From a virus (taxonomy: Duplodnaviria; Heunggongvirae; Uroviricota; Caudoviricetes): a stretch of 37,740 bases of DNA. The first letter of the stretch is position 1. Each line of letters begins with the position of its first letter. The position numbers and the translations under genes are program-made. A model generated the notes under the pieces. That model worked only from the letters and a program-made list of their open reading frames with translations. It had not been told where the DNA came from and made no database searches. The DNA lies in the IMG/VR virus record IMGVR_UViG_2778261277_000009, positions 1 to 37,740 of that record, one strand, 5' to 3'. Positions 19,958-35,775 of this stretch are shown piece after piece.

Positions 19958-20773
19958 TTAGCCAAGGCGCTTACGGCGCAGTTTCATTGACTTTTTGCGG
20001 GCAAGTTTTGCCGCGCCGGTCTGGGCTTTTCGACGCGCTTTTTTCAGCGCCGATTTTTGAGCCGCAGTCAGACGTTTTTTCCGCAGGCGTTTACGGATGA
20101 GTTTGATCTCACCGTTACGAACAACCTTCTTAAATGCTTCAGTCAGCATTTCATCAGAAGTGCCAGCAACAACAAACGCCGCTTCCAGTTCGTCGCGGTC
20201 GTCGCTATCTAAACCAGCGATAGAGGCACCAACATCAGCAGCAGCGTCGTCGTCTTCATCGTCAGCCAGTGCTTCGATCATGTCATCATCTACACCGCAT
20301 GCTGCGAGGAAGTCAGCAACATTTGCCCATGCTTCGTTATAGGCATCGTCCTGTTCTTCTGTAACTTCGGAGTCGTCGTCATCAGAGATACCAGCGATAG
20401 CCTGAACGAAACCATCAAGGGAGTCGAAAGTCAGATCACCGCTATCAGCCCAGGCGAAAACGGCATCGGCCGCATCACTCAACGCATTCTGCATCGCACT
20501 TCGATTTGCAGCTTCCAGAATCATCTGGTGCGCCTGTTCAACGGTCCATTCTTTACCGTCTTTCTCTTCCAGGATTTGCTCAGGAGCCGGATCAGATGGA
20601 ACGTTATCGTTAGTCTGTGCCGCCGGTTCCGGATTATTATTAATAACCGGATCTGTTGGCGGTTCGGCGCTTGCTCGGGCAGACTCCATCAGCTGCACAG
20701 GATCAGAGTTCAAAGCGAAACGGGACAGTCCATTCCCCAAAAATGCCCCGGATTGAAAAAAGTTTTTGCTCAT
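19958..20773 (-). CDS. acidic virion protein with highly basic C-terminal tail
   Basis: 271-aa ORF; D/E-rich body, K/R-rich last 45 aa. Confidence 0.5.
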   Translation of the reverse strand: MSKNFFQSGAFLGNGLSRFALNSDPVQLMESARASAEPPTDPVINNNPEPAAQTNDNVPSDPAPEQILEEKDGKEWTVEQAHQMILEAANRSAMQNALSDAADAVFAWADSGDLTFDSLDGFVQAIAGISDDDDSEVTEEQDDAYNEAWANVADFLAACGVDDDMIEALADDEDDDAAADVGASIAGLDSDDRDELEAAFVVAGTSDEMLTEAFKKVVRNGEIKLIRKRLRKKRLTAAQKSALKKARRKAQTGAAKLARKKSMKLRRKRLG

Positions 20774-20782
20774 TGTATTCCC

Positions 20783-22372
20783 TTACTTAATAAGCAGCGG
20801 TACGCCCTGGATACGACGGGCTACGCCAGTCGGGCAGCAGGCCCAGACTGCTTCCCATTTATCGAATTCCGCCTGCGTAACTTTCAGCACATACGGTTCT
20901 GTACCGTCAGCATCAGGATCACGAGGAGCCACCAGAGCGCCGGAGGCGACAAAGCGATCTAAAAGTTTGGTCATCCCTTTAGTCAGACCAGCCGCAGTAA
21001 TACCGTCCGGGCTATGCTTCATCTGTCGGGCTAACTGGACAAAGAAACGGCTGATTGCATTCATCAGGGATGGGACGTGCTGGAAGTGCAGATAGTTATC
21101 CTGCGTGCAGCAAGTTAAAGCATCGTCGATGATCATCTGGCCAGAGGTGCCAACAGATACTTTATTGAGACGGCCCTTGACCATTGCTTCTTCGTCCGGG
21201 GTATCTTCCGGATACAGCGGTTGAATTGACGCTCGAGCAATGACGGCACGTTCTTCACCAGCCGGTGAGTAATGCCAACCGCCGACATCAGAGTTTTTCT
21301 TGACGCCACGAGCTTTCGCCGCATACGCCGAGCCAGACAGACCGAAGACCACACGGGATTGGGTCCATTTGTCTTTGCAGGAGAACGGGAAGTGATAGAC
21401 AGCACAGCTTACATAATCGGTACCAAGTAAACCGGTATCTTCAACAGCAGAGATCGCTTCCGTGTACGTCAATGTCGGTTTGACATCAAAGAAGCCATCA
21501 ATCAGGCGATCTGCACAGATTTTACCTAATGCGGTGATAGCCGCATTGTCATAGCAGCCCAAGCCAAGAACAGCGGTGTACATGTACGGCGCATTGTTCA
21601 GCACTTTCACCGCACGCAGGTACGCAGCGGTTGAGATTTTCGACTGATCACCGTTGGTACCACCAGTGAACGCCAACGATTTTTTGTTTGTTACTTTCGC
21701 TGTAGAAATCAGATCTTCATTAACAACCGCGCGCAGATATTTAGAACGGGCTTCCAGAGCCGTAGGCAGATAACACAAGCGGCCCATGTCATCTTTCGCT
21801 TCTTCCGCCAAAGACACAGTGTGTGTCTCCAGGGTCGTTACCACACCGAGCGAAGTCGTCTGGGTCAGTTTTAAGAGGAAGCGTTCATTACCCGCGCTGT
21901 CCGCTGTTGCCGTTTCGATGGTTAACTCACGGGTAGGTGAAATACACGGATCACCATCATCAACGTAGATAGCAAAGGCTTCGCCGCTATCAAGTTCAAT
22001 TTCAGAACCGTATGGCAACGCACTGTAAGCCGGTTCGCCTGATTCATCGAACATAATAATCGGGAACTTCGCATCATCCGGAACAGCACGGACAACATAA
22101 CCAGACGTTTGCTGAATAGCTTCGTACACATGGCGAATTGGTTCGAACTGTGAGCCGGAAGACGGCTTCAGCGGTTCGCCGAGAACATCTTCGTAATTGG
22201 ACTCAGTAACCGCAAGAACAGTAAACGGCTTGCCACGCGCAAATACGCCAATACCAGCCCACAAGCTGCTATTTAATGCAACACCGGTAGATAACGTCGC
22301 ATCGGCATTGATCGGGCTAACAGCGACGCCGGATGCATTACCTAATGACTGTTGAATTGAATATTGAGACAT
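20783..22372 (-). CDS. tail sheath protein (P1 gene 22-like)
   Basis: 529 aa (about 57 kDa), position and size consistent with the contractile sheath. Confidence 0.55.
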   Translation of the reverse strand: MSQYSIQQSLGNASGVAVSPINADATLSTGVALNSSLWAGIGVFARGKPFTVLAVTESNYEDVLGEPLKPSSGSQFEPIRHVYEAIQQTSGYVVRAVPDDAKFPIIMFDESGEPAYSALPYGSEIELDSGEAFAIYVDDGDPCISPTRELTIETATADSAGNERFLLKLTQTTSLGVVTTLETHTVSLAEEAKDDMGRLCYLPTALEARSKYLRAVVNEDLISTAKVTNKKSLAFTGGTNGDQSKISTAAYLRAVKVLNNAPYMYTAVLGLGCYDNAAITALGKICADRLIDGFFDVKPTLTYTEAISAVEDTGLLGTDYVSCAVYHFPFSCKDKWTQSRVVFGLSGSAYAAKARGVKKNSDVGGWHYSPAGEERAVIARASIQPLYPEDTPDEEAMVKGRLNKVSVGTSGQMIIDDALTCCTQDNYLHFQHVPSLMNAISRFFVQLARQMKHSPDGITAAGLTKGMTKLLDRFVASGALVAPRDPDADGTEPYVLKVTQAEFDKWEAVWACCPTGVARRIQGVPLLIK

Positions 22373-22432
22373 AACTTTCCCTGTTATGCGCCCCGCACGG
22401 GGGCGCTATGTTAAACGGAGAACTTCCCCTGA

Positions 22433-24139
22433 TTACTCAGAGTCACCGGCATCAATCGTGTCGCCGCTTATGAAGTTAAGCCCGCCTTTTTTGGCCATTG
22501 TCAGCGTTACACGAGTGAAGTAATCAGCGCCGTTGCGTGGGTGCATATCGTTGATAGCCGAACCCCACAGCGTGGTACGGTTGACCAGCGCCGGAGTGGT
22601 CGGATGCTGGAACGGGATGGCCGGGACAGCATCACCAGTCACGAAGCCTGCTTTACCCGGATTTTCATCACGGACGTAGCACAGCACATCCATCGAGCTG
22701 AACTGAATGTTCTCTGTCGTTAAGTTCTTACAAATACCAGCAGGTACTTCGTACACTTTCACGTTACCGAACAGGGTACCGATGTAGTGAACATACGGAG
22801 TCTGGATATAGTCTTCGGCTGGCTGGAAGAAATCCTTCGGCAACTGTTTGAAGAAAGATGCTGCATCAGCACCAGCAAACATCCCCATCGCACCAGAAGA
22901 TTTAACGCGCTCAATAATGTCGCGATATACAGTCTGGAATTTGCCACGAATGATGGTTGCCCATACATCAAAGGACTGGTTAACCGGCAGAGCGATGTCA
23001 AAGGTGTCGGTCGCAAGAGTACGCCAGATCATGATGCGAAGACGCAGCATATCCTGTTCATGAGACAGGTATTCCTTCAGGGTGCGGAACTGTAGGGAAC
23101 CCAGGTCCAGACCAAATTCTCGCTGTGCTTCATACGCCGCCTGTACCGTGTGCTCAGCCGCGATAACGAACTGGCTTGGGAACAGGGTGTATTTCTTCAT
23201 TTCGTGGTTGATCAGCGGGATCAGCTCAGGAGCGGCTTCAATATTGATTTCCGTCTCAATTGCGATCTCAGTGCCTTTATCCGGCGCTTTGGAGAACGAC
23301 AGGGCAATCTGACCAATGTTGTAGTTCAGAGAGCAGGTAACAGTGATTTGCTCACCAGCAGCATTAGTAAACGAGTGAAGTAGGCTGCCGGAACCGTTAT
23401 CAACAACAGACTTAATACGGTTAACGTAGATATTAGTGCGACCTTTTCGGATTGGTACATTCTGGCCTTCGAAGTCTTCCATCTTGAAGGTTGCGGTTTT
23501 GCTGGTGCCATCGGAGCTTGCCACCAGCACATAGCGGCGGCGTAACTGGCTGTACACACCGACGGATTGCATGTCCAGAACATCACCAGCAGCATAAGAA
23601 CCAAAAGAGGAACCTGCCACGTTAAAGACTTCATAGATGTCGGACTGGTCACGCGTAACCGGAATGAAGGTACACGCATCAGCGGTAGCTGCCCCCAACT
23701 GAACAGGCAGGATCATCGCGAGGAATAAAGGCAGACGCATAACACCGTCAGAAACGCTCATCATCTCTGCTGCGACGGATTCCAGCATCGCTTTATTAGT
23801 GGCATCCATGCTATTGCGGGTGGACTCAATCAGGCAGTTTTCCAGCGTCTGGTGGCAGGAGGCCAGAATTTCCGGACGCGGCATAGATTTATGTGCTGCG
23901 GCGTAGTCAGCCAGTGCACTTGCCCACGCTGTAGCGATTTGAGCGGTGGCATTATCAGAGATACCCGCAAAAACCGGGTCTTTACGTGCAGCTTCAAGGA
24001 TAGATGCGGCACGCGCGGCATCATCTTTAATGAATTGGTTATCAGTACCGAACTGCGCAGTGCTTGCCCAGCCAAGCACAGCTTTAGAGCGTTTTGCGAT
24101 ATCTGCAATACGATTCTGGTATTCGCGTAAGTTACTCAA
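22433..24139 (-). CDS. major head protein candidate (P1 gene 23 position), probable TTG start
   Basis: About 63-kDa ORF; the track's first codon at 24160 is TTG; a TTG at 24139 has an AAGGAAG SD 7 nt upstream. Confidence 0.45.
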   Translation of the reverse strand: MSNLREYQNRIADIAKRSKAVLGWASTAQFGTDNQFIKDDAARAASILEAARKDPVFAGISDNATAQIATAWASALADYAAAHKSMPRPEILASCHQTLENCLIESTRNSMDATNKAMLESVAAEMMSVSDGVMRLPLFLAMILPVQLGAATADACTFIPVTRDQSDIYEVFNVAGSSFGSYAAGDVLDMQSVGVYSQLRRRYVLVASSDGTSKTATFKMEDFEGQNVPIRKGRTNIYVNRIKSVVDNGSGSLLHSFTNAAGEQITVTCSLNYNIGQIALSFSKAPDKGTEIAIETEINIEAAPELIPLINHEMKKYTLFPSQFVIAAEHTVQAAYEAQREFGLDLGSLQFRTLKEYLSHEQDMLRLRIMIWRTLATDTFDIALPVNQSFDVWATIIRGKFQTVYRDIIERVKSSGAMGMFAGADAASFFKQLPKDFFQPAEDYIQTPYVHYIGTLFGNVKVYEVPAGICKNLTTENIQFSSMDVLCYVRDENPGKAGFVTGDAVPAIPFQHPTTPALVNRTTLWGSAINDMHPRNGADYFTRVTLTMAKKGGLNFISGDTIDAGDSE

Positions 24140-24190
24140 TTTACTCTTCCTTAAACACAAGGCACTTGTGTGAATCCCTTTTCGGAAGAG

Positions 24191-24209
24191 ATTTTATTGA
24201 AAGTCACTT
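24191..24209 (-). promoter_or_regulatory. candidate late promoter (AAGTGACTT palindrome, 4 nt, TAAAAT)
   Basis: Same architecture as the site upstream of R; palindrome lies inside a longer inverted repeat GAAAGTCA/TGACTTTC. Confidence 0.4.
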
Positions 24210-24274
24210 GTTGACTTTCTCGTGACAAGAAATTTTTTTATTTTTTTCGGGAGGAGGGGAGAAAGGTAAAATCC

Positions 24275-24362
24275 AAGGTGAAATCGTGGCGATTTCACCT
24301 TGAAATTTTAGAAGGATTTACTTTAAAAACAGTAATTTAATGGTGAAATTTGAATGGCGAAA
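24275..24362. other. parS: parS partition site (centromere)
   Basis: Box A heptamers (GTGAAAT/ATTTCAC) and box B hexamers (TCGCCA/TGGCGA) flanking an AT-rich IHF-like spacer, immediately downstream of parB. Confidence 0.8.
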
Positions 24363-24364
24363 GT

Positions 24365-25366
24365 TTAAGGCTTCGGCTTTTTATCGAGGCTCTTTCTAAG
24401 GATATGCCCAATCATCCTGTCGAGTTCTTCCTGTAACTCTTTTGAGAGTCGATTAAACTCATAAGAAAATGCACGGCCTTTCACGCGCTTCCTTGCAAAG
24501 CGATCCTTGTCCTCAAATTTCCATAATTCAGTAACTACGGACTTATCTTTAGAACCTTTATCCGTGAGTAGTGAGGCTTCCTTTGTTATCAAGCGCAGGA
24601 TTTTATTTTTAACTTCATCTTCGGCCATTTCTTCAATGGATAAGATGTCGTTTATTTCCGGGGATATGTTTTGAATAAGCTGATCAAACTCTAAATTCTT
24701 GTTCCCCATTTCGTCGCCAACAGCACAAAGCGTTTTGTAGTCCGAAAAGGTTAATTCCGACTGCACAGGGAAAAGGGCGACTAATTCTTCCGGAGCACTC
24801 GCTGCCTGGAGAGCACGCGTGACCTTCGCCTGAGACAGCCCTTCTTTGGCTGCAATATCCTTCTGACTCATCCCATCATTTTTCATTCGCATCAAACGCA
24901 GACCTATTTCTCGAATGCTGTGCTGCAATGCTGTCTGAACGTCTTTCGCTAAATTTTGCGCTTCCTGAACGCTGATCTCCTGATCCGTGACTAAAACCCG
25001 CAACCCTACGTTCTCTAAGATGGCAGAAGCTCGACGCCGGGAACCATCCAAAATTTCAATTTTCCCTGTAGCCCGTCTAACACCTATTGCAGGGTAAAAT
25101 TGCTGATGCTTAATAGTGCTTCGGATACTTTTTAATGATTTTGGCGTAAGAGATGCCTGGTCACGCCCGTTGTTATGCTGATCAACAAAGGTATCGCTTT
25201 CTACCTGGTTCGGAGGTATTACCTCTTCAATAAATGTGGCCTGGCGACCAGTTGATAACTTGAATACCTGCTCGACTCGATCGCCAGAGGCTGAAGAACT
25301 ATCAAATCCGCTTAATATTGAAGGATTAAGGGTTCGCCCAATTGTTGGTCTGTTTTTCTTTGACAT
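24365..25366 (-). CDS. parB: partition protein ParB
   Basis: 333-aa ORF, MSKKNRPTIGRTL N-terminus, directly downstream of parA and upstream of parS. Confidence 0.95.
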   Translation of the reverse strand: MSKKNRPTIGRTLNPSILSGFDSSSASGDRVEQVFKLSTGRQATFIEEVIPPNQVESDTFVDQHNNGRDQASLTPKSLKSIRSTIKHQQFYPAIGVRRATGKIEILDGSRRRASAILENVGLRVLVTDQEISVQEAQNLAKDVQTALQHSIREIGLRLMRMKNDGMSQKDIAAKEGLSQAKVTRALQAASAPEELVALFPVQSELTFSDYKTLCAVGDEMGNKNLEFDQLIQNISPEINDILSIEEMAEDEVKNKILRLITKEASLLTDKGSKDKSVVTELWKFEDKDRFARKRVKGRAFSYEFNRLSKELQEELDRMIGHILRKSLDKKPKP

Positions 25367-25382
25367 GGGGGTTTCTTACTCC

Positions 25383-26579
25383 TCAGTTAGATCTGATAAA
25401 TTCAATACGGTCAAAAACTGCTTTAGCAAAATCTTCCGCGGCAATTCGCGCGTTCTTCAATGCATCAGCACTACCAACATACGTTGCCGGGTTAGCTGAA
25501 ATAACAGTGTCAAAAGACTCGCCGCAACGTTCAAAACCGTCAAGGCGAGGGAGGACGACATCGAGCATATCCCCACCGAACACTTCTTTAGCCAGGCTAT
25601 GGCAATACTTATGATCTGCCTTGTTACTCAACTTGGACATAAAACCAATGTTAGTCGCAAGCTGGCACTCGCAGCCTTCATCCGAAATGAGTTTCACCAA
25701 CTCAGGAAGGCGGGCAACGTATTTAAGCGATGAGTGGAAATCGACAGTTGCTGGCGGCAGAGGTGTAAACAGTATATTGGCCGAGGCCAAAGCATTTTTC
25801 AGGAAGGCGTCAAGGTGAGGACCACTATCAACGAGGATAAAGTCATAATCGCTCTTCAGCTTATCAATCACATTTTCTTTCAGGACAGCATGGATGTTCT
25901 GACCCGGTAGATGCTCATTGCACAGCTCTCTCCAATCGGATGCAATAAAGGCATCGTCAATCGACGCAGGCATAACGTCAACCCCAGGTACAACAGAAGG
26001 AACAATAAACTCCTCTAACAGCTCTTCACGGCTTACATTCTGCAACATAGCCTGTGCAGATGTTGCGTTTACGATACCAATAGAGTGTTTATGGCTTAAA
26101 AACATCGTTGCTGAAGATTGCGGATCAAGGTCAATAACCAGAATCCTTAAATCTTCCATCAGAAGATGAGGGTGGGCACGCATTGCATGCGCCAGAGAAA
26201 CCGTCGATACAGTTTTTGACACACCGCCTTTAAGATTGGAGATGAAAATCACATACGCTTCGCTGTAGCGATCCCGGTATTTTGGCACTCCGCGATGTTC
26301 ATATATGTCAATGATGTTCTGAATTGACATCGCATATTTCATTGAAGAGCCAGCAGGACGTTTATCGAAAACATAACCCTTTTCTTCCATTTCACTTACG
26401 GCATAGTCAACGTTCGCTCGAGTCAGTAGAGGCAATTTTGCCAGTGCCGCTTTCGCATAGACCTGGTAAAACTCGTTCGCGTGTAGCTCATCCTTTTGCA
26501 ACTGTACTTGTTCAGTCAGAACATTGAGCATTCTGTTTGCTCTTTGAGCAACCTTGTGAAGCTGGCTGGAATCACTCAT
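25383..26579 (-). CDS. parA: partition ATPase ParA (type Ia, with N-terminal DNA-binding extension)
   Basis: 398-aa ORF; Walker A NLKGGVSKT about 100 aa from the N-terminus. Confidence 0.95.
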   Translation of the reverse strand: MSDSSQLHKVAQRANRMLNVLTEQVQLQKDELHANEFYQVYAKAALAKLPLLTRANVDYAVSEMEEKGYVFDKRPAGSSMKYAMSIQNIIDIYEHRGVPKYRDRYSEAYVIFISNLKGGVSKTVSTVSLAHAMRAHPHLLMEDLRILVIDLDPQSSATMFLSHKHSIGIVNATSAQAMLQNVSREELLEEFIVPSVVPGVDVMPASIDDAFIASDWRELCNEHLPGQNIHAVLKENVIDKLKSDYDFILVDSGPHLDAFLKNALASANILFTPLPPATVDFHSSLKYVARLPELVKLISDEGCECQLATNIGFMSKLSNKADHKYCHSLAKEVFGGDMLDVVLPRLDGFERCGESFDTVISANPATYVGSADALKNARIAAEDFAKAVFDRIEFIRSN

Positions 26580-26842
26580 CGAAAGTCATCCTTTATGCTG
26601 TATTTTTGAATTTAATTAAAAATGCTGCATAAAATAATAATGTATGCGTAGATGCTTGTACATAGCATTCCCTGCATGTTTACTCCTTTGCCAAGTGTGT
26701 CACAACATGCTTTGGCATCCTCCACGCATAAAGGACGCGGATTTCTTCTATGTTCAGGTTGTAGCCTGAATCATTTTGGTGATTTCCTGCTTCAACGGGC
26801 AGCCCGGCTTCACTCTCTATCAACTGGTGAGAACGGCTTGCC

Positions 26843-27138
26843 CGGCAGCTTCGATGTGTGCTGGAGGGAGAATAAAAGTCTAAGATGTGCGATAGAGGGA
26901 AGTCGCATTGAATTATGTGCTGTGGAGGGATCGCTGGTATCAAATATGTGTGCTGGAGGGAAAGACAGAGAATTACATGTGCACTGGAGGGAAAAACGGA
27001 TGGACAGATGTGTGCTGGAGGGAAAGTCTGAGCAAACTGCGGGGCGTCCCCCTCCAGCGCACATCAAAAACGGGAAATTGGACAAGCCTTCCCGGCAGCA
27101 CACATTTTTTGAATGCAGCTGCCCTCCAGCACACACTT
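26843..27138. repeat. incA copy-control iteron array (9 RepA-binding 19-bp repeats, 6 in one orientation and 3 inverted)
   Basis: Repeats of type GATGTGTGCTGGAGGGAAA at 26843, 26884, 26914, 26945, 26976, 27007 and inverted copies at 27049, 27091, 27121. Confidence 0.85.
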
Positions 27139-27997
27139 ATTCGGGGAGTTTCAGCTTTGGATTGCGAGAATGGACGATTACAAAACTTTCCCGGCCTTTC
27201 TTCTCAATTGAACAGTCGAGATAGCCGATTGTTTTAAGCTGTTCTATCGCTTTCTTAATGATACGGTTTTGCTCGCCAACAGCTGACTGCAAAGCCAGGC
27301 GCTCACGGATTCGCGCGAACGATAGCGGCAACGGGTTCTGCGGAAGGCTTTCGATGAAAGTGTAAATGGCTTGTGCAGCTTCTTTCTTCGGAAGGGCACG
27401 CAAGGCGTGGTGTTGCAACAGAACGCGATAATCAAGCTGGAACAGCTCCCACAGCTTCGAATCAGCCTCCAGCTCTATCAGATCAAGGTCAGCATCAAAA
27501 CGCCCGACCTTCAGCAGACCAGTCTGATAGCCGCCTTTAGCATCTTTTCCGCGCTTAAAAGCGATACCCTTGTTACGCAAGCGTCCAAGTGATTCATGAA
27601 TGGTTAAACGCAGTTTCGCATCCAGACGTTTTGAGGGGAAACCACAGGCTTTAGCGAATTCCTGAAACGATAACTGGATGGTGTTTGAGGACAAGCCGTA
27701 TTTGCTGAACGCGTAGATGACACCGATCCACGTTTTGAAATCAGTATCCATATCGAGTCGAGGACCGGTGATTTTAATATCATCGTAACCCTCGGCTTTA
27801 GCTATCTCCAGCTGGGAAAACGCTTTGGTGGCATCAATCTCTTTACTTTCTCCTTTGCTCTTTGATGGCTTCGGAACGAATACCCCCAAGCGCATCAACG
27901 CTACAGGCTGGACAGTGTTGTTTGAATTAACTGTTAGTTCTTTTGCCTTACTTTCAATGTCTGCGTAAAGAATATCGGAGATAAATGATTGATTCAT
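27137..27997 (-). CDS. repA: plasmid replication initiator RepA
   Basis: 286-aa ORF flanked by iteron arrays on both sides; MNQSFISDILYADIESKAKEL N-terminus. Confidence 0.95.
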   Translation of the reverse strand: MNQSFISDILYADIESKAKELTVNSNNTVQPVALMRLGVFVPKPSKSKGESKEIDATKAFSQLEIAKAEGYDDIKITGPRLDMDTDFKTWIGVIYAFSKYGLSSNTIQLSFQEFAKACGFPSKRLDAKLRLTIHESLGRLRNKGIAFKRGKDAKGGYQTGLLKVGRFDADLDLIELEADSKLWELFQLDYRVLLQHHALRALPKKEAAQAIYTFIESLPQNPLPLSFARIRERLALQSAVGEQNRIIKKAIEQLKTIGYLDCSIEKKGRESFVIVHSRNPKLKLPE

Positions 27998-28015
27998 ATT
28001 ACTTTTTCCGAATTG

Positions 28016-28274
28016 TGTGGATAGTTTTTATAAGTGGTGATAACTACCCAGGCTTTCCCGTCAGCACACATCCTATATCCCGCCAGCACACATTAGCAAC
28101 CCGTCAGCACACATTTTTATCCCTCCAGCACACATCGTTTTCCCTCCAGCACACATCGCGATACACTTCTAAACCAGACGTGGCGCGGCCTGCAACGATC
28201 AGGGATCTATATGGATCTAATTGGGATCTGTATGGACCTAATTATTGGATCTACCCAGTGGATAATGTGGATAA
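28016..28274. other. plasmid origin oriR (DnaA boxes, incC iterons, GATC-rich repeats)
   Basis: DnaA-box-like TGTGGATAG (28016-28024); five GATC sites at 28197-28251 in short AT-rich repeats; tandem DnaA boxes AGTGGATAA/TGTGGATAA at 28257-28274. Confidence 0.8.
28055..28157. repeat. incC iterons (5 direct 19-bp RepA sites) within the origin
   Basis: Five copies of CC(C/G)(T/C)CAGCACACAT(C/T) spaced 20-22 bp. Confidence 0.85.
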
Positions 28275-28302
28275 GTGAAAAACCGGCCAACATAGCCGGT
28301 TG
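28274..28302 (-). terminator. rho-independent terminator after the upfA-like gene
   Basis: AACCGGC-caacata-GCCGGTT hairpin followed on the minus strand by TTTTTCAC. Confidence 0.55.
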
Positions 28303-28314
28303 GAAGGAAGGGTA

Positions 28315-28707
28315 TTATTCTACGCTTTCGATAAGAAGACCATGTTCATAGCATTTAAGCTCATCGCCTTCATACAGGAACTGGTATCCAATACCACCAT
28401 ATTCAGGCACATTAGGGAATAACTCATCACTTACCGAAGAACAAATCACACCAATGCAGCGATCAACGCCTTCTCGTTCTTCAGTGCTGAAAAAATCCTC
28501 TTCGGTAAGAACATGAGTGCATTGCTCATCAGCATAGGTCGGAAATACATGCTCGATGCAATCCGGGTGTTTTAAACCAAGCTGATTGGCAAGCTCGAAA
28601 GCATGACGGTATTGTTCAGATCCTGGCTTGCCAACAGTGATTTGCTCAATTTTGTAGATTGAAGTCGCTTTGTTGATAGTTTGCTTTACTGTTACTTTAT
28701 CAGACAT
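28315..28707 (-). CDS. hypothetical protein (UpfA position)
   Basis: 130-aa ORF, acidic, Cys-containing. Confidence 0.5.
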   Translation of the reverse strand: MSDKVTVKQTINKATSIYKIEQITVGKPGSEQYRHAFELANQLGLKHPDCIEHVFPTYADEQCTHVLTEEDFFSTEEREGVDRCIGVICSSVSDELFPNVPEYGGIGYQFLYEGDELKCYEHGLLIESVE

Positions 28708-28718
28708 AAAAATCCCTT

Positions 28719-29051
28719 TTAGTTACCGCTGATAGCGCGGTTGTAATCATTAACGTTGCGATTCTTCCTGTTAATCCCCATCAGCATCGTTTCTGTATCA
28801 AGGATATACGCTGGCAGATCATCAAAATATTCACTGCTAAACTCTGGCATCCTGCACATAAACGCACTTTTGGGGGCAGGGTGGTTAACCTTTGTCGGCG
28901 TCGGCGTTAAATTCGCTGATCGACTCCCGGAGCAACCGCTGAGTGTCAGCAGGAATACGCTGGCGAACATTACCCGCCGCAACCAGTTGTTTCTGAACTT
29001 CAGCTTTTCGTTCCATTTGCCTGTCAGCATACTTGGCTTGTTCTGATTCAT
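28719..29051 (-). CDS. outer-membrane lipoprotein, o-spanin-like (Rz1-like; Mlp position)
   Basis: Lipobox LTLSGC, Pro-rich mature part with a second Cys; starts inside the upstream gene in a different frame and extends 166 nt past its stop; AGGAAG SD before the ATG at 29051. Confidence 0.5.
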   Translation of the reverse strand: MNQNKPSMLTGKWNEKLKFRNNWLRRVMFASVFLLTLSGCSGSRSANLTPTPTKVNHPAPKSAFMCRMPEFSSEYFDDLPAYILDTETMLMGINRKNRNVNDYNRAISGN

Positions 29052-29307
29052 TTTTCACTTCCTGGCTGTGAAAATGTTGCTCTGCTTTGTTCATCGTCTC
29101 AATGGTCTGGTTAAGATCCTTTATTGACTTATCACGTTCCTTAACAGCCTGATCAAGACTGCCAATTTTCTCGATGGCTTGCTTTAGCTGATGACGTTCC
29201 CATACAAACCCAGCACCAACAAGTGCGCAAATCAGAACAAGAACACCAGTAGCAGCAAGTTTCTCCTTCAAAGACAAAGCTGTTTTTAACGTAGAAAAGA
29301 ATGACAT
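28885..29307 (-). CDS. type II inner-membrane coiled-coil protein, i-spanin-like (Rz-like; PpfA position)
   Basis: Start chosen at the ATG with an AGGAGG SD (MSFFSTLKTALSLKEKLAATGVLVLICALVGAGF); N-terminal TM helix followed by a charged coiled-coil periplasmic domain. Confidence 0.5.
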   Translation of the reverse strand: MSFFSTLKTALSLKEKLAATGVLVLICALVGAGFVWERHQLKQAIEKIGSLDQAVKERDKSIKDLNQTIETMNKAEQHFHSQEVKNESEQAKYADRQMERKAEVQKQLVAAGNVRQRIPADTQRLLRESISEFNADADKG

Positions 29308-29346
29308 GTCTTCCTCCTGAAGAAAAATTATCAATGAAGTCCTTTG

Positions 29347-30135
29347 TTACTGTGCCGCTTTGTTTAATTCATCAAGAACAGAATCAGGAACCAAAGCGGC
29401 AACTGCGCTGGCTGTGCTGGCCTTATTTGCTGATGCTTCCGCAAGCGCGGTACCGATAGCATGGTTATAAGCAGTTATGGCTACGTTGGCGCTTTCATTC
29501 GCTCGTTCATACTGCTGTTGTAACGCAGTTGTGGGCGCTGTTGTCTGGTTGAAAACAACCCCAAACTGTTCAGTTGCTACTTTCAGAGATTCAATTTGCT
29601 CTTCTGTTAGTGTTGGTGGGGGAGTGGCAGTGCCGCCGCCTGAACCAGAGCCTGACGAGCTTACTGAGCCAGTGTTAAGGGTCTGGTTAATCTCCCCCAT
29701 AGCAGCGACTAAACTTGATGTATTAAGCGCGTTAACAGCGTCCTCAAGCGATTTAGTAATATTCACATCACCAATGGCAATAGAGATCGGCAGTTCTGAA
29801 ACTTCTCGCTCATTAGCACGGCAGTAAACATCCCAACCAATATCGAGTTGAAGCAGCATTGACAGATCTGCATAACCAGCCAACAGGTCCGCGTGCTTAG
29901 TTGCCAGTTCTCCAATGTTCGTTAAGCCGGTTGTAGTTGTTCTGATCGTTGAAACATAACTGGTAATAGTGTCGGGATAGACAATTGTATCCAGAATTAA
30001 TCCGGTCAATTCTTCTGCAAGCAGTTTTGCTGTGTTAGCACTGTTTCGTGCCGATGTTATGGCACCAGGTGTTTTCATCCCACCAGCGGCGGCCAATTTT
30101 TTATATGCGGATAACTGGTAGTCTTTTTCCAGCAT
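29347..30135 (-). CDS. hypothetical protein (UpfB position)
   Basis: Start at the ATG with an AGGAGA SD (MLEKDYQLSAYKK); Ser/Thr/Gly-rich C-terminal half. Confidence 0.5.
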   Translation of the reverse strand: MLEKDYQLSAYKKLAAAGGMKTPGAITSARNSANTAKLLAEELTGLILDTIVYPDTITSYVSTIRTTTTGLTNIGELATKHADLLAGYADLSMLLQLDIGWDVYCRANEREVSELPISIAIGDVNITKSLEDAVNALNTSSLVAAMGEINQTLNTGSVSSSGSGSGGGTATPPPTLTEEQIESLKVATEQFGVVFNQTTAPTTALQQQYERANESANVAITAYNHAIGTALAEASANKASTASAVAALVPDSVLDELNKAAQ

Positions 30136-30143
30136 GATATCTC

Positions 30144-30428
30144 CTAACTTACCTGAACCAGGCCGTCTCCGGACGCTACGGTAGATCCGCATGAAACAGG
30201 GTCACCAACGCATACGATCCCTTTACCATTGACGGTAAACCATGCCCTGGTTGATATAGCTTGCCCACCGTGCGTACTGTTTCCATCGGTATGCTGTGCA
30301 TATTGCTTACCATCAACTAACACTTCGACTCCGTTGACTTTAAGTAGTGGTTCACTCTCTACAGGAGGCCTGGATGGGAATCCTCCGTGCCCCGAACAAA
30401 TGCTGTCTTTTGTTGCAATACTTGCCAC
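30144..30428 (-). CDS. small Gly/Cys-rich protein with PAAR-like repeats (tentative), GTG start
   Basis: 94 aa with CSGHGG, STHGGQ and DPVSCGST motifs, reminiscent of PAAR spike-tip proteins; the first codon is GTG with GGTGA upstream. Confidence 0.4.
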   Translation of the reverse strand: MASIATKDSICSGHGGFPSRPPVESEPLLKVNGVEVLVDGKQYAQHTDGNSTHGGQAISTRAWFTVNGKGIVCVGDPVSCGSTVASGDGLVQVS

Positions 30429-30509
30429 GTCATCACCAATTATTTGCTCTGATTTTCGTTATTTTAACTCAGGTTGTTTGTGGTCTACATGGCGTTTACC
30501 TATTATAAA

Positions 30510-30526
30510 ATTGCTCTAATAAATAT
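30510..30526 (+). promoter_or_regulatory. C1 operator in front of the uhr-hrdC-dmt operon
   Basis: ATTGCTCTAATAAATAT, 16/17 to consensus, about 70 nt upstream of the first ATG that has an SD. Confidence 0.7.
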
Positions 30527-30597
30527 TGTTTTTTATGTCGTATTTTCGGTACCATTCAGCCATCGCCCTTCAATGGGCATTTGTTTGGAGTCGTCAG

Positions 30598-30882
30598 ATG
30601 CAGATGGAGCTAATAAGCCGCAAAGAGTTCGATAGCCGTGTAACCAGCGGTGAACTCGACAACTTGCAGGCTATCAAGGTGAAAGAAGGCTTTTGCCTCA
30701 TTGGGAATCAGAGCGGAACAAATCGCGTTTTTATGCTTCGCCGTACGGATTTGAAGCCATTTGTCTGGAAGAACGAAATTGGTCCCAGCTCATACGCTCA
30801 AACGAGGGGGGGCCACAACCTGGCCTTTTTCTACAAAGACGAGCTTTCTGTGGTTGATATTCAAGGGTTACAACATGTTTAA
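30598..30882 (+). CDS. small protein upstream of the rdgC homolog (Uhr-like)
   Basis: ATG at 30598 with GGAG 8 nt upstream; 94 aa; its stop overlaps the next gene's start. Confidence 0.5.
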
Positions 30883-31780
30883 GCACTGGAAAAACATTAC
30901 TATTTATAAACTTTCTCGTGAGGCGGATCTGACCGACTTAGAAGATAAAAAGAAAATGATCCTTTTCACGCCATGCGGTAGTCAGGATATGGCCAAGTTC
31001 GGTTTTGTATCTCCATTTGGTGATAATTCCGAAGTTATCGCTATGCATGGAAATGGTTTTATCCTTGTTGAAGCAAAGCGCGAAACAAAAATTCTTCCCC
31101 CGCCGGTTATCCAGCGAGCTATTCAAGAAAAAATTGAAAAACTTGAGCAAGAACAAGCGCGTAAACTGAAGAAAACAGAGAAGGACTCCCTGAAAGACGA
31201 AGTTCTGCATTCTCTTCTGCCACGAGCTTTTTCAAAGTTTTCTGTTATCCAGGCGATCTACGACGGTTCAACTAAACGTATCTATATCAATGCCAGCGCG
31301 CGGCAGGCAGAGGATATGCTCGCGCTTATGCGTAAGTCTCTGGGTTCTCTTCCTGTTGTTCCCCTGAGTGTTGAAAATCCCATTGAATTAACGCTGACCG
31401 ACTGGGTACGTGATGCTCGTGCTCCACAGGGATTTCAAATGGGGGATGCGGCAGAACTTAAGGCAGTGCTTGAGGATGGCGGTATCGCCCGAGTGAAAAA
31501 GCAGGATTTGGGAAGCGATGAAATTTCCACACACCTGGAAGCTGGCAAGCTCGTCACAAAGTTGGCACTCGACTGGCAGAACCGCATTAAATTTACACTG
31601 GACCATAACTTCAGCCTTACCAGCGTCAAATTTGCGGATGAATTGCTTGAGCAGAACTCTGATATTGATAGTGAAGATGTAGCGCAGCGACTGGACGCAG
31701 ATTTCTTCCTGTTAACCAGTGAAATTTCGTGCCTGGTTGATGCTCTGGTAAATGCCCTGGGCGGAGAGGCTAAGCAGTGA
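30875..31780 (+). CDS. hrdC: RdgC-family recombination-associated protein
   Basis: 301 aa; N-terminus [16 protein letters not shown]...[15 protein letters not shown] and ...[28 protein letters not shown] match the E. coli RdgC pattern as recalled from memory. Confidence 0.85.
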
Positions 31781-33795
31781 GAGAGCTGTGCTATGGATCT
31801 GTTTGCAGTGGAATTGAAGCCGCGAGCATTGCCTGGGAACCGTTGGGTATGCGTCCGGCGTGGTTTGCTGAGATCGAGCCTTTTCCATCTGCCGTTCTTG
31901 CGCACCGCTGGCCCCATGTCGCCAACCTTGGCGACATGACAAAACTCGCCCAAAAAGTCCAGGCAGGAGAAATTGAAGCCCCTGATATGCTCGTCGGGGG
32001 TACGCCTTGTCAGGCATTCAGTATCGCGGGCTTACGTGGTGGGCTTGATGATGAGCGCGGCGCGCTAACTTTGAAGTATGTGGAGCTTGCAAATGCAATT
32101 GACGACAAACGGGCTGAGTCCTTCCTCAAACCAGCAGTTATCGTCTGGGAAAATGTCCCAGGAGTCCTGTCATCAGCAGATAACGCGTTCGGATGTTTCC
32201 TTGCCGGATTGGCTGGAGAAGATGCGCCATTCGAACCTGGTGATCGACCTGAATCACGAAAAAGTAATACGTTCTGGCGGTGGGATGTCAAAACCGGTTG
32301 CCATGCTCCAAAGTGGCCGCAGTGTGGTTGTATTTATGGACCGCAGCGAAAAGTGGCCTGGAGAATCCTTGATGCCCAATACTTCGGAGTGGCACAACGA
32401 CGCCGACGCGTGTTTGTTGTCGCAAGTGCTCGAACAGACCTCGATCCCGCAACGGTACTTTTTGAGTTCGAAGGCGTGCGCCGGAATATTGCGCCGAGCA
32501 GAGGCGAGGGGAAGGAAACTACCAGATATACTTCAAACATCGCTATCAGAACTTGCGATGATACAAACATAATTGCCATGGCACATGGGCAAGGAGGGGC
32601 TGAGATAAAAACCGATAATTCGGCACCAACTTTGACATGTAACCATGAAGCACCAATTGTATTGCTCGGCGACGGTAGAATGCGCCGTCTTACCCCTGTC
32701 GAATGTGAAAGGCTGCAAGGTTTTCCTGATGGGCATACGTTGATCCCGACGGAAAAGCGTAAAAAAGTTAATTCAGATGAACTGGCATATCTTCGCAATC
32801 ACTATCCAGATTTAAGCGAAGAAGAGGCCGCGATGCTTGCAGCTGACGGACCGCGTTACAAAGCGATCGGCAATAGTATGGCAATACCAGTAATGTGCTG
32901 GATTGGAGATCGGATTACTAAGGCCGTATGTCGGCAGAAAGAAGGAAGTGAAACAAAAGAGCGAAAAGTTAAACCAGCGGCAGAATTCGAACGGTCCATA
33001 TTCAAATGGGCTGGTGGAAAATTTGGTGTTCTGGAACAAATCTTTCACTATTTGCCAGAAGGGAAGCGCCTGATTGAACCTTTCGTTGGTGGCGGAGCTG
33101 TCTTCATGAATGCCGGATACCAGGAAAATCTGCTAAATGATGTGAATGCTGACCTGATTAACTTTTACAAGACTCTGCAACGCGAGGCGCATTCACTTAT
33201 CACTCTGGCACATCGTTTCTTCCTGGACTACAACACCCAGGAGGGATTCCTGGCAGTACGGAATGCGTTTAACAAACAAGTCTATGATGATTTACATCGC
33301 GCAGCGGCGTTTTTGTTCCTGAACCGACATTGTTTTAATGGATTGACGCGCTACAACCAGGCCGGTGAGTTCAATGTCGGTTATGGGAAGTATAAAACTC
33401 CGTATTTCCCATTACAGGAGATGGAAGCCTTCCTCGGTGCGGAAGGGCGGTCTGAGTTTGTATGCGGTGATTTTGCAGCAGTGATTGAAGCTGCCGGAGA
33501 AGGAGATGTCATCTTTTGCGATCCGCCGTATGAACCGCTCCCCAATACAGAGGGGTTTACGAACTATTCCGGTCATGACTTTAAGTTTGAAGAGCAAAAA
33601 CGCCTGGTGTCTCTGTTGACGGATGCTCATCGCCGAGGTGCAAAGGTACTCATTACTAACAGTGGCGCGCCAAACGTCAGAGAACTTTATCAGGACAGTG
33701 GCTTCAGAGTGGAACCTCTCTTTGCCAGACGTTCTGTGTCTTGTAAGGGAGACACTCGTGGTGTTGCTCATGACGTTATGGCTATATTGCTCTAA
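31777..33795 (+). CDS. dmt: bifunctional DNA methyltransferase: N-terminal C5-cytosine MTase fused to C-terminal Dam-like N6-adenine MTase
   Basis: GTG start overlapping the rdgC stop; C5-MTase motifs [11 protein letters not shown] (PCQ), ENVPGV (ENV), QRRRVFVVA; C-terminal FKWAGGK and DPPY motifs. Confidence 0.9.
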
Positions 33796-33815
33796 TAAAT
33801 TTATTAGTGTAATAT
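33786..33815 (+). promoter_or_regulatory. C1 operator (perfect consensus, Op72-like) overlapping a sigma70-like promoter toward the tRNA/ban region
   Basis: ATTGCTCTAATAAATTT exact (33786-33802), followed by a partial inverted half-site; -35 TTGCTC, 17-nt spacer, -10 TAATAT (33810-33815). Confidence 0.7.
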
Positions 33816-33989
33816 CACCTCAATGAATCGTGATTTATAGAGCGATTTAGCTGTTAGCCGCGACAGGCGCGGCGGCAAGTATGGCGGGGTAGTGACTCCT
33901 TCCCCATCATGACGCCGAGTTGCCAGGTTGACCATACGCCTAAGTGGCAACACCGAAGTGCGTTACGAGCTTCCAGTTTGCCCATCTTC

Positions 33990-34015
33990 GGGTGGGCGTT
34001 TTTTTCAGGGTTTTC
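33990..34015 (+). terminator. strong rho-independent terminator about 190 nt downstream of the operator/promoter
   Basis: GCCCATC-UUCG-GGTGGGC stem with tetraloop followed by G and seven T. Confidence 0.7.
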
Positions 34016-34471
34016 GTCATGGTTAGCGACTTTGCGGCGGTTTAGAAACTGACCATTAAAGTAAATGCAAACGATGATCTGATGATGGTAGCGGCCTAAG
34101 AAGCCAGACGCCACGGGGTATGAGTCGTCCCCCGTCAAAAAATCGACCGCAGAGTGTCCCCGTCTGTGTATTAGGGAACGGGGAGGCACAACAGGTAAGG
34201 GCGCTGGTTCGATTAACCAGATGAGCGAGAAGGGGTCATCTTTTTGGTCAGCGTCCTTACCTGTTACGTCCTTTTTCATTCTGCGTAACAGCAATTGCTT
34301 TTAGCAATTTGAAGATAACGTCCTACTACGGGGGTATCCCGTCATGCTGAAGGCGCTAATCACGCTGGAAGCCAGGGTTGTGCATCCCCTGTTACCGAAT
34401 TGCAGCCAGGGCGCGGTGCGCCGAAAAGCATACGGAGGTGGAAGCCCTCGCCGGAGACGTACCCGGCAAGT

Positions 34472-34547
34472 GATGGTGTAGCTCAGCGGTTAGAGCGGTT
34501 GACTGTTAATCAACGGGTCGATGGTTCAAATCCATCCACCATCGCCA
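34472..34547 (+). tRNA. tRNA-Asn (anticodon GTT)
   Basis: Hand-folded cloverleaf: 7-bp acceptor GATGGTG/CACCATC, D-arm TAGCTCAGCGGTTAGAGC, anticodon loop CTGTTAA, T-loop TTCAAAT, encoded CCA. Confidence 0.85.
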
Positions 34548-34549
34548 AT

Positions 34550-34625
34550 GCCGGTTTAGCTCAGTTGGTAGAGCGCCTGCCTTGTAAGCAGGATGTCAGC
34601 GGTTCGAGTCCGTTAACCGGCACCA
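34550..34625 (+). tRNA. tRNA-Thr (anticodon TGT)
   Basis: Cloverleaf with acceptor GCCGGTT/AACCGGC, anticodon loop CTTGTAA, T-loop TTCGAGT, encoded CCA; starts 2 nt after tRNA-Asn. Confidence 0.85.
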
Positions 34626-35188
34626 GCACAACAGGTAAGGGCATTCTCCCTTATAGGGCTTGGCTTAAATGCATCGAGTGCTCTTACCGTTGTGATGAAG
34701 TGCAGCTCTTTGAAGCAACCAGAAGATAAGCATCTGGCTTCACAACATAAACCGCAGGAACGACCAATAAACGGTAGTCCGTATGGAGAACACCCCGTTG
34801 AGGAAGAGGCCTGGCCGGAACCGTAACCGGCGACTGGTAATGTGTGTAAATGGAGCGAAATATGTGGGCGTTTAACGGGATACGGGTTGTAACAGCGATT
34901 ATTAACGGCGAACTTAAGTATTCACGTTTCGAGACAAATGAACGTGATGGGAAATGTATTGGTGTGCGGTTAGTAAGAGAATACGCATAACAACTACAAC
35001 GTTGAGAACACTGGCGTAACGGGGTCATATCCCAATCTATGAATAAATGTTGCGTTGCAGCGTGACAACCAGTGTTCTCAACATTGTGGTGAATGCACAG
35101 GCTGATGTGCCGCAACTACAGTAGTGCGCGCTTTGCGGGGCTTGCTACAACCCTGTGTCGGAGTTCAGCACCGACCATCACAATCACT

Positions 35189-35275
35189 GGAGAGTAGGGA
35201 GCATGGTGCTCAAACGGTCTTGAAAACCGTCCCATTGCGCAAGCGATGATGGTTCGATTCCATTACTCTCCGCCA
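35189..35275 (+). tRNA. tRNA-like element, class II (long variable arm), anticodon-arm identical in type to tRNA-Ser(UGA); atypical D-arm
   Basis: Perfect 7-bp acceptor GGAGAGT/ACTCTCC plus G and CCA; anticodon stem-loop ACGGT-CTTGAAA-ACCGT; T-arm GATGG-TTCGATT-CCATT; 17-nt variable region; D-arm only 4 bp with a 5-nt loop. Confidence 0.4.
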
Positions 35276-35538
35276 GTGCAACGTTAAGAGTATTTGGCTA
35301 ATTAAGCGAATGCCGGAAGCAGAACCGGATCACCAAATGCGTACAGGCGTCATCGCCGCCCAGCCAGCCAAGTGCTCTTACCATTGCGGTGAATGCGGCT
35401 ATGCGCACGCGGAACAGTTAAAACAATCCTCCTTAGTGGTTAAGTCAAACATCCCGGCGTTAATTGTTAACTGGTTAACGTCACCTGGAGGCACCAGGCA
35501 CCGCAGCTTTTTTATTCGTTAAATAATGGAGTGAGAGG

Positions 35539-35775
35539 ATGCAGAACAATCCGAACAAATGTCGAACGCTATGGGTGCGGTTATATATTTATGCCGTCCT
35601 CTGTTTGATTGTGTCACTGGTTCTGTATGTTTGGCTTTTGCCAAATATGATCTCATCTAACAGCACAATACTTGTATTGTTGGGAGTCCTTTTCGCGCTC
35701 ATTTACCCGGCTTTCGCAGTAGTCTTTTTTCGTGAAAAAACCAGGAAATTAATTAATGAAAAAAACGTTGATTAG
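35539..35775 (+). CDS. upl: small two-helix membrane protein upstream of plp (Upl-like)
   Basis: 78 aa with two hydrophobic helices; GGAG SD; overlaps the plp start. Confidence 0.5.
   Translation: MQNNPNKCRTLWVRLYIYAVLCLIVSLVLYVWLLPNMISSNSTILVLLGVLFALIYPAFAVVFFREKTRKLINEKNVD

Follow-up and report, generated by a model that had tools for sequence, protein, structure and literature searches.

The closest described relatives of the elements considered here are STnc100 and PasD, prophage small RNAs (sRNAs) that Zhu et al. judged to be related (PMC8550237; bioRxiv 10.64898/2026.05.13.724894). PasD has been confirmed by Northern blotting, depends on Hfq for its stability, and has targets identified by RNA interaction by ligation and sequencing (RIL-seq) (PMC8550237; bioRxiv 10.64898/2026.05.13.724894), while STnc100 lies 75 nucleotides (nt) downstream of stx2 in published work and has been detected by reverse-transcription PCR. 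Here, we analyze IMG/VR record IMGVR_UViG_2778261277_000009 (37,740 nt; hereafter the window), which sequence comparison places among P1-like phages or phage-plasmids, and in particular a family of short direct repeats that lies between and after tRNA genes of its ban operon. We find that each of the three direct repeats forms the conserved 5′ boundary of a structured-RNA module, and that the modules (M1, M2, and M3) are tandem paralogues whose nearest catalogued relative is STnc100; PasD is linked to them via its relatedness to STnc100 as judged by Zhu et al.

An earlier note on this DNA had described three direct repeats of about 29 nt and one inverted copy. Our repeat search returned the direct repeats as a single family, with copies starting at 34677, 35071, and 35371, all on the plus strand. 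With at most one mismatch, the degenerate 21-mer YTNWMCRTTGYGRTGAAKKSM matches only these three sites in 37.7 kb (0 expected from 100 shuffles), and a 26-mer consensus with up to three mismatches matches two sites in the window, with 0 expected. The identity of about 85% quoted for the copies was too high, as pairwise values are 62–76% over 29 nt and 76–86% over the first 21 nt. When the window and eight relatives were aligned, the copies showed a common plan, consisting of the repeat, a hairpin, a variable stretch, a second hairpin, and an abutting strand complementary to the repeat's TTGYGRTG. Each repeat therefore consists of a single-stranded leader of 12–13 nt, AGUGCUCUUACC, the strand that opens a closing helix on its 5′ side, and GAAU; repeat copies 2 and 3 also take in the start of the next hairpin. 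The closing helix (helix P1) has 8–10 bp. Helix P2 is the first hairpin and has the form GCRCA-GGCUGA-UGYGC in what we call type A, and helix P3, the last hairpin, abuts the 3′ strand of helix P1 and carries in its loop a UCAGC complementary to the P2 loop. Between P2 and P3 lies a hypervariable insert of ~10 to 200 nt. All modules are on the plus strand, sense to the C1-controlled ban operon.

M1 (34677–34747, repeat copy 1) is truncated. Its leader (34677–34688) is followed by a closing helix of 34689–34695 with 34740–34746 and the hairpin CCAGA-AGAUAAGCA-UCUGG, without the first (P2) hairpin, and this copy is kept in P1, P7, D6, RCS47, and SJ46. M2 (35071–35185, repeat copy 2) is of type A, with its leader at 35071–35082, helix P1 formed by 35083–35091 with 35176–35184, helix P2 at 35095–35110 (loop GGCUGA), a variable domain, and helix P3 at 35157–35175 (loop AGUUCAGCA). 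The minimum free energy (MFE) fold of M2 reproduces all three helices. M3 (35371–35516, repeat copy 3) is of type B, or STnc100-like; its leader occupies 35371–35383, helix P1 pairs 35384–35391 with 35499–35506, and helix P3 (35484–35498, loop AGGCA) is the last hairpin, after which a C and UUUUUU follow at 35507–35513, ahead of the next start codon at 35539. In computed folds, the modules are unpaired at the leader.

The family extends well beyond P1-like phages. Two pattern scans of IMG/VR, each yielding at least 120 loci, gave 186 unique instances among the matches listed; the scan patterns fixed part of the 5′ half and thereby seeded the sampling of the family. Among these 186 instances, the closing-helix strands change together, UUGUGGUG being found with CACCACAA, UUGCGGUG with CACCGCAA or CACCGCAG, and UUGUGAUG with CAUCACAA. 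Type A has a conserved 5′ part, GGUGAAUGCGCAGGCUGAUGCGC, a hypervariable middle of ~10–200 nt, and a conserved 3′ part, GCCGGAGAUCAGCACCGGCCACC; in type B (STnc100-like), the corresponding parts are GGUGAAUGCGGCUNAGCGCACGCGG, a variable middle, and CACCGGGAGGCACCCGGCACC. Conservation begins sharply at an A located 13 nt ahead of the closing helix and stops with that helix.

The earlier note had named covariance analysis as a check, and the closing helix as well as the two further helices do covary across the family. In an alignment of 33 type A cluster representatives, pre-selected for a matching closing helix (A1), 96.7% of cells are paired, compared with at most 57% in slid controls, and eight pairs show double changes, which none of 500 shuffles reaches. 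A calibrated covariance model (R1) was built from A1, and 88 R1 matches from 80 species genomes, fitted to the model, make up a second alignment (A2). There, 97.5% of cells are paired, compared with at most 42% when the partners are slid, and compensatory changes occur in 16 of the 19 pairs (104 cells), again reached by 0 of 500 shuffles. All three helices covary strongly, and the G-U pairs occur on the plus strand only. In 69 of the 88 sequences, the P2 loop is complementary to the P3 loop over at least 5 consecutive nt, compared with 4.5 sequences expected, although the P3 loop varies in length (mostly 8–15 nt), and one compensatory loop-loop change, from G-C to A-U, is found in CMS-2020a. 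This complementarity suggests a kissing contact between the two loops.

Within the window, R1 has exactly three significant matches, all on the plus strand: M1 (27.9 bits, E = 1.3e-5), M2 (89.1 bits, E = 1e-21, a score that is high partly by construction, because the near-identical copy of phage P1 is in the seed alignment), and M3 (40 bits, E = 8.6e-9). The next match scores 10.9 bits (E = 0.37). Compared with Rfam, M3 (35385–35505) matches RF02076 (STnc100) with 40.1 bits and E = 1.5e-6 over model positions 31–147 of 206, and its orthologues in P1, D6, RCS47, and SJ46 score 33–42 bits, that of prophage Qin 34 bits. By this match, M3 belongs to the STnc100 group as a distant, sub-threshold member. 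Neither M1 nor M2 matches RF02076 at E up to 1; indeed, M1, M2, and type A at eight distant loci gave no match to any Rfam family at E up to 1, and no paper in the searchable literature contains the type A core sequences. M2 belongs to a sister type, which Rfam lacks and which is found widely in prophage-like regions across Proteobacteria. The phage relatives keep two to four copies, always on the plus strand.

The exact 24-nt core of type A was found in 84 stretches when one genome per species was scanned. It occurs mostly in Enterobacterales and Betaproteobacteria (Janthinobacterium, Achromobacter, Comamonas, Acidovorax, Polynucleobacter, Thauera, and Gallionella), also in Pseudomonas, Aeromonas, and Marinobacterium, and its carriers are prophage-like regions. 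Single contigs labelled Alphaproteobacteria, Geobacteraceae, or Phycisphaerales carry it too, two of which look enterobacterial and may therefore be mis-binned. One of the 84 stretches, in Candidatus Magnetaquicoccus inordinatus (locus L320, ~2357–2390), has the core GGTGAATGCGCAGGCTGATGCGC as a spacer between direct repeats CTCTTGGCCGCCTACGCGGCGGTGAAC, in the manner of a CRISPR array; if it is one, elements bearing the module are CRISPR targets in a magnetotactic bacterium. In three distant type A modules (L258, L278, and L309), a tRNA-like sequence with T-arm motifs GGTTCAACTCC or GGTTCGAGTCC lies within the hypervariable insert.

The inverted copy of the repeat, which the earlier note had placed in a 19-bp inverted repeat, is also real, but its extent had been drawn too short. 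The arms (34993–35014 and 35069–35090, plus strand) are 22 nt long, 91% complementary, and 54 nt apart. The upstream arm, hereafter the anti-leader, is opposite the M2 leader and the first strand of M2 helix P1, with which it pairs. The RNA of this inverted repeat folds with −44.6 kcal/mol, compared with −23.2 ± 3.1 in shuffles (z = −7.0). Its pairing competes with M2's own closing helix, and in a fold of 34985–35195 the long hairpin wins. The anti-leader can thereby hold the start of M2, from the leader through the 5′ strand of helix P1, in a duplex of 22 bp. All P1-like relatives have such an arm. Unrelated phages, whose leader is AGUGUUCUUCCCG, show GGGAAG in the arm opposite CUUCCC, where P1-like phages have GUUGAG opposite CUCAAC. 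Since the arm changes in step with the leader, the anti-leader is a selected RNA feature. By reading, the arm of locus L058 starts ~10 nt past an operator-flanked promoter just downstream of cI, and a similar promoter-like sequence lies upstream of the arm in L282.

The modules lie in the ban operon. A Pban promoter with a C1 operator ATTGCTCTAATAAATTT (33785–33830, plus strand) is homologous to the annotated Oban/P1ban/P2ban of phage P1 (NC_005856) and marks the start of the ban-operon transcript, which carries the leader, the tRNAs, the repeat region, and ban. From Pban up to ban (36967), the sequence reads as one C1-repressed operon, all on the plus strand, in the order dicF-like leader with terminator, tRNA-Asn, tRNA-Thr, repeat region, membrane-protein ORF, SPFH gene, tRNA(CAU), and ban. 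The operon leader (33860–34005, plus strand) is homologous, in a by-eye comparison with prophage Qin (L011), to the region upstream of DicF, and the phage P1 record annotates a "dicF-like region" at the start of the ban leader. Where DicF would be, the terminator scan found a strong intrinsic terminator, with a hairpin at 33979–33998 and a T-run extending to 34005; as it lies upstream of the tRNAs and ban, transcription must read through it. A sigma-70 scan of 33.7–37.0 kb found no internal promoter site, and the repeats were accordingly rejected as promoters. The tRNA genes, all on the plus strand, are tRNA-Asn(GUU) at 34472–34547 and tRNA-Thr(UGU) at 34550–34625 (ARAGORN; 74.5 and 74.9 bits with the Rfam tRNA model), tRNA-Ser(UGA) at 35189–35275 (ARAGORN; Rfam tRNA-clan match of 45 bits; the same tRNA is annotated in D6), and a further tRNA with anticodon CAU (ARAGORN). 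The earlier note, which had described the repeat region as a non-coding stretch, overlooked tRNA-Ser(UGA).

Taken together, we favor the reading that the modules are sRNA genes embedded in a polycistronic precursor, from which they would be freed by tRNA-type processing and termination; on sequence and context, we hold this to be about an even call. Derepression of Pban would yield one long untranslated transcript with the DicF-like RNA, the tRNAs, and the modules. The 3′ end of M2 might be generated by RNase P cutting at the 5′ end of tRNA-Ser, which begins 4 nt past the M2 closing helix, and its 5′ end by an RNase III-type cut in the anti-leader duplex. The 3′ end of M3 might arise through termination or Hfq binding at the U-tract, where helix P1 is followed by C-UUUUUU, a site that the terminator scan did not flag. 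The conserved P1/P2/P3 core would serve as a stabilizing, protein-recognized scaffold, and the variable insert would give each copy its specificity. The suggestion that the region might hold sRNA genes, one of three possibilities raised in the earlier note, thus fits repeats that are the conserved 5′ parts of three covarying structured-RNA copies, and we regard that original interpretation as partly supported.

Several observations weigh against embedded sRNA genes. The stability of single-module folds is unremarkable compared with shuffles (z from 0.0 to −0.6), so that the structural case rests on covariation, and the percentages of paired cells given above are inflated both by the pre-selection of A1 and by the model fitting of A2. 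M3 scores below the gathering score of RF02076 (40 compared with 47 bits). M1 and M2 have neither a terminator nor the U-tail borne by classic Hfq-dependent sRNAs, and the versions of M3 in P1, P7, D6, and SJ46 lack the U-tract. The variable insert is sometimes only ~11 nt long or contains tRNA-like sequence, and it may therefore be a tolerated insertion point instead of a seed. Finally, members of the family are often found in promoter-proximal leaders upstream of co-directional genes, a placement that a cis role suits equally well.

The surroundings of the relatives bear on this choice. Promoters of the relatives, terminators after distant modules, DicF-like sequences, and Q-like genes were read by eye and not scored by a tool, and the evidence from neighbors is restricted to genes conserved between loci, since crude ORF-strand statistics near distant modules are unreliable. 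The early-left operon houses the module in SfV, mEp460, the Stx2a phage Stx2a_WGPS2, and L058; there it comes after cI and PL, and the annotation shows no N-like gene in the interval. In SfV, a DicF-like RNA with a U-run directly follows the module, and DicF-like sequence is seen likewise at several other loci. At five loci (L246, L249, L252, L265, and L271), the module is upstream of holin and endolysin genes and after a Q-like ORF; in L271, a terminator-like hairpin and a tRNA-Arg come after it. Some distant members have an intrinsic-terminator-like hairpin and U-run 10–100 nt past the module. Genes for tRNAs flank the modules in P1-like phages and in ~10% of distant genomes, at a module-tRNA spacing of 6–84 nt outside the window, and close spacing is also seen in D6, CMS-2020a, and other relatives. 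In an E. coli A30 prophage (L012, 2424–2895), four phage RNA elements stand in a row over ~470 nt, partly under a coding sequence annotated as a Rha-family regulator: a sub-threshold DicF-like element (39 bits, the gathering score being 48), then an STnc100-like module, and then isrK and C4, both of which pass their thresholds.

A cis-acting role in transcript processivity (antitermination or anti-Rho), with the leader acting as a boxA for NusB-NusE or the core binding RNA polymerase like the put sites of HK022, is in our view a doubtful but serious contender. Transcription would in this way get past ~1.7 kb of structured, untranslated RNA with its terminators and continue into the downstream genes and ban. 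The leader of copies 1 and 3 has UGCUCUUA (family consensus UGCUCUUU), which matches at 7 of 8 positions the rrn sequence UGCUCUUU, which we take to be the 8-nt rrn boxA core, or the lambda sequence CGCUCUUA, but copy 2 has UGUUCUCA and agrees at only 5 of 8. BoxA nucleotides 1–8 are those that NusB-NusE recognizes; mutation of G35, C38, or U39 in lambda nutR weakens this binding, and the best-kept leader positions (C −7 and U −6) align with C38 and U39 in our own alignment. Among 81 loop-anchored genome matches, 15 have YGCUCUUW in the leader, compared with 1 of 81 in a control window, and the motif recurs in another leader context, CGCUCUUUUU, in Comamonas and Polynucleobacter. However, the largest subfamily has the leader AGAAUCCUUAGCG, with five mismatches in eight positions, ~80% of the genome matches are without boxA, and across the full window YGCTCTTW shows no enrichment (7 sites compared with 6 expected). 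The lambdoid modules of SfV, mEp460, Stx2a_WGPS2, and L058 stand at a nutL/putL-like position, often just before a DicF-like terminator, and the exact 24-nt core across bacterial classes suggests a universally conserved host partner. Against this, three tandem copies would be unneeded, the strong terminator at 33979–34005 lies upstream of all three modules, and there is no likeness to HK022 put. Other modules follow stx2 or Q-like genes, positions at which antitermination is already provided by Q.

Somewhat less probable than such a cis role, in our estimation, is that the modules are processing punctuation or 5′ stabilizers, that is, tRNA-shaped folds around which RNases cut, separating tRNAs, DicF-like RNA, and mRNAs and leaving a protective structure at the 5′ end of the downstream mRNA, with no function in trans. 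The short distance of tRNAs from modules (4 nt after M2, 6–84 nt elsewhere) agrees with this, as do the DicF-like sequence seen by eye directly after the module in several enterobacterial and related relatives, the tRNA-like sequence inside the insert of some members, and the end of type B copies ~30 nt ahead of a start codon (32 nt here, and similar in phage P1, D6, and Qin). RNase III cuts duplexes of about 22 bp, the length of the anti-leader duplex. On the other hand, punctuation leaves the letter-for-letter conservation of loops and junction across bacterial classes unexplained, an RNase P-type RCCA is not present after helix P1, the helix P1 and P3 stack has 14–15 bp compared with 12 bp in tRNA, and relatives accumulate as Hfq-bound sRNAs with targets. 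Readings at the DNA level, whether degenerate C1 operators or host-factor sites, recombination boundaries of tRNA cassettes, or remnants of miniature inverted-repeat transposable elements (MITEs), appear improbable. The repeat start AGTGCTCT does resemble the C1 operator ATTGCTCTAATAAATTT, an asymmetric site of 17 bp with which copy 1 shares 10 positions by hand count, and the region is a mosaic with breakpoints near the repeats, the tRNA-Ser segment ending at 35366–35367 and repeat 3 starting at 35371. Yet the repeats were rejected as P1 C1 operators, given this partial match and a phage P1 record that has no operator annotated at the repeat positions. The motif is moreover kept in lambdoid phages and Betaproteobacteria, from which we know of no P1-type C1 repressor, and the compensatory changes and G-U pairs indicate selection on the folded plus strand, which speaks against the protein-binding arrays of the earlier note as a DNA-level reading. 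Its other suggestion, a mobile-element remnant, fares no better. The copies are confined to 34.7–35.5 kb, none being dispersed elsewhere in the window, have one orientation within one operon leader, and have hypervariable interiors; terminal inverted repeats are lacking, and the search did not extend to target-site duplications. Least probable of all, and hardly credible to us, is a protein-coding origin, in which the repeats would be repeated peptide-coding segments of minus-strand Plp/Upl or of the 70-aa ORF 35310–35522. Although plp and upl are annotated here in P1 and RCS47, the minus-strand ORF 34684–35115 has no Pfam or PHROG match and has only its first 41 aa in common with phage P1 Plp; its frame is lost past a 161-bp insertion, a length that is not a multiple of 3, though the flanking DNA is 91.5% identical. 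No Upl counterpart exists in the window, and the match of ORF 35310–35522 (plus strand) to phrog_24763 covers 24 residues encoded within conserved M3 sequence. The earlier verdict that these two ORFs are junk-like therefore holds, but its wider claim that the region lacks a convincing ORF missed one of 46 aa (34850–34990), which matches phrog_8025 over its full length (E = 9e-25).

That 46-aa ORF lies inside the 161-bp insertion (34832–34992, plus strand), which a BLAST segment map defines relative to P1, P7, D6, RCS47, and SJ46. The insertion is located between M1 and the M2 anti-leader, outside the RNA modules, and is also found in Ro157c2YLVW. The earlier note had taken ORF 35539–35775 for upl; it encodes a PHROG-1130 membrane protein on the plus strand and lies outside the repeat region, whereas the annotated upl of phage P1 is a 63-aa minus-strand ORF that overlaps the repeats. 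In phage P1, plp and upl (L001, 1697–2266, minus strand) run antisense across trnT and the RNA modules. Both are probably spurious annotations that were carried over into RCS47.

The segment 35189–35366, comprising tRNA-Ser(UGA) and ~90 nt, has 82–83% identity to lytic phages of the Vequintavirinae (rV5-like) and ends 4 nt ahead of repeat 3. It is replaced by unrelated sequence in phage P1 and thus behaves as a horizontally exchanged tRNA cassette. Within it, at 35290–35345, reading by eye reveals a possible degenerate mini-module, UAUUUGG ... GCCGG-AAGCAGAA-CCGG ... CCAAAUG, which model R1 does not detect. Further upstream, an exact 17-nt direct repeat, GCACAACAGGTAAGGGC, occurs directly after tRNA-Thr (34626–34642) and 440 nt upstream (34186–34202). 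The upstream copy is followed by a T-arm-like sequence, GGTTCGATT, possibly a decayed tRNA, and takes part in a 17-nt inverted repeat (34190–34206 with 34249–34265). In phage P1 and RCS47, a tRNA-like remnant, GGGTTCGAATCCC, stands just ahead of the first module.

The modules themselves are not tRNAs, as ARAGORN and the Rfam tRNA model find only the four true tRNAs in the window, and what they share with tRNA is a loose topology, with helix P1 stacked on helix P3 and two loops touching. A hammerhead ribozyme was likewise rejected; CUGAUG is found at the P2 loop, but C stands in place of the essential A9, and the Rfam ribozyme models are silent. Two further candidates, a pseudoknot between the leader and GGAG of P3 and a role of the leader as anti-Shine-Dalgarno sequence (a 7-bp match to the Shine-Dalgarno region of ORF 35539), were too short to test.

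As for function, the sequence comparisons leave a trans-acting sRNA with roughly an even chance and a cis processivity element with a clearly smaller one; the type B cousin is known as STnc100, and the main type is uncatalogued. A bolder and rather speculative reading is that types A and B form an unrecognized phage RNA class with members in several bacterial classes, built as a three-way junction with a kissing-loop lock and a free insertion site, whose letter-for-letter conserved core would act directly on a universal host machine. One version of it would be a protein-independent or Nus-assisted antiterminator (anti-Rho) in the early operons of N-less lambdoid and P1-like phages, and the other a new processing ribozyme or scaffold. 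If this reading were true, STnc100 and PasD would be only enterobacterial offshoots of the class. The modules also bear on how known sequences are read. The P1-type plp/upl stretch would be re-read as an RNA array instead of protein genes, and one RNA superfamily joins the P1 ban leader, the Qin dicF-dicB spacer, and STnc100/PasD of pathogenic E. coli with leaders that follow cI or Q in several phages and prophages of lambdoid type. Rfam has no entry for the main type (A), yet its exact 24-nt core is common mainly to Gamma- and Betaproteobacteria, which marks a gap in the catalogue. The fold, the anti-leader switch, and the two functional alternatives are directly testable in P1, a genetically easy phage.

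Among known phage RNAs, lambda 6S RNA and StxS are leader-derived sRNAs that arise from early termination. Some members of the family stand at the same PR′-tR′ leader position, between a Q-like gene and lysis genes and with a by-eye terminator after them, but the copies in the window are in an early C1-controlled operon and not in a late operon, and, to our knowledge, leader RNAs of the 6S/StxS type do not share the module fold. The comparison with HK022 put is similarly mixed. In relatives that have no N-like gene annotated at this place, the module follows the early-left promoter closely, as putL follows PL, and both are conserved, folded nascent RNAs in sense orientation. In contrast, put is ~70 nt long with two stem-loops and no long-range closing helix, and the modules in the window are 0.9–1.6 kb from Pban. 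R1 found nothing significant in HK022 20000–34000, around PL and PR (best match 13 bits, E = 0.19), and the put regions of HK022, when read, showed no motif in common with the module. With boxA of lambda nut and rrn, the modules share a single-stranded UGCUCUUA or UGCUCUUU directly 5′ of structured RNA in a long phage or untranslated operon. They differ in that no boxB hairpin (a GNRA-type pentaloop, by sequence reading next to the leader) or N gene is seen and that the motif is absent from most members and degenerate in copy 2. For the ban-operon leader of phage P1 itself, a literature search gave nothing usable.

The likeness to STnc100 concerns M3 only and, as seen with cmscan and the MFE fold, comprises the closing helix of 7–8 bp, GGUGAAU, and a last hairpin CCNGG-AGGCA-CCNGG that abuts the 3′ strand. 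Both are carried by phages or prophages, in the intergenic space of operons. They differ in that RF02076 positions 1–30 and 148–206 are unmatched by M3, and type A has another P2, another P3 loop, and a kissing-loop pair that is not evident in type B. The window further departs from STnc100 in its three tandem copies with tRNAs. The DicF/dicB operon of Qin offers a further parallel, although the module has no match to RF00039 (DicF). Homology links the first part of the ban leader to the Qin region upstream of DicF. Of 5426 complete E. coli genomes, 4682 contain sequence like M3; the K-12 copy belongs to prophage Qin, where dicF precedes it and dicB follows.

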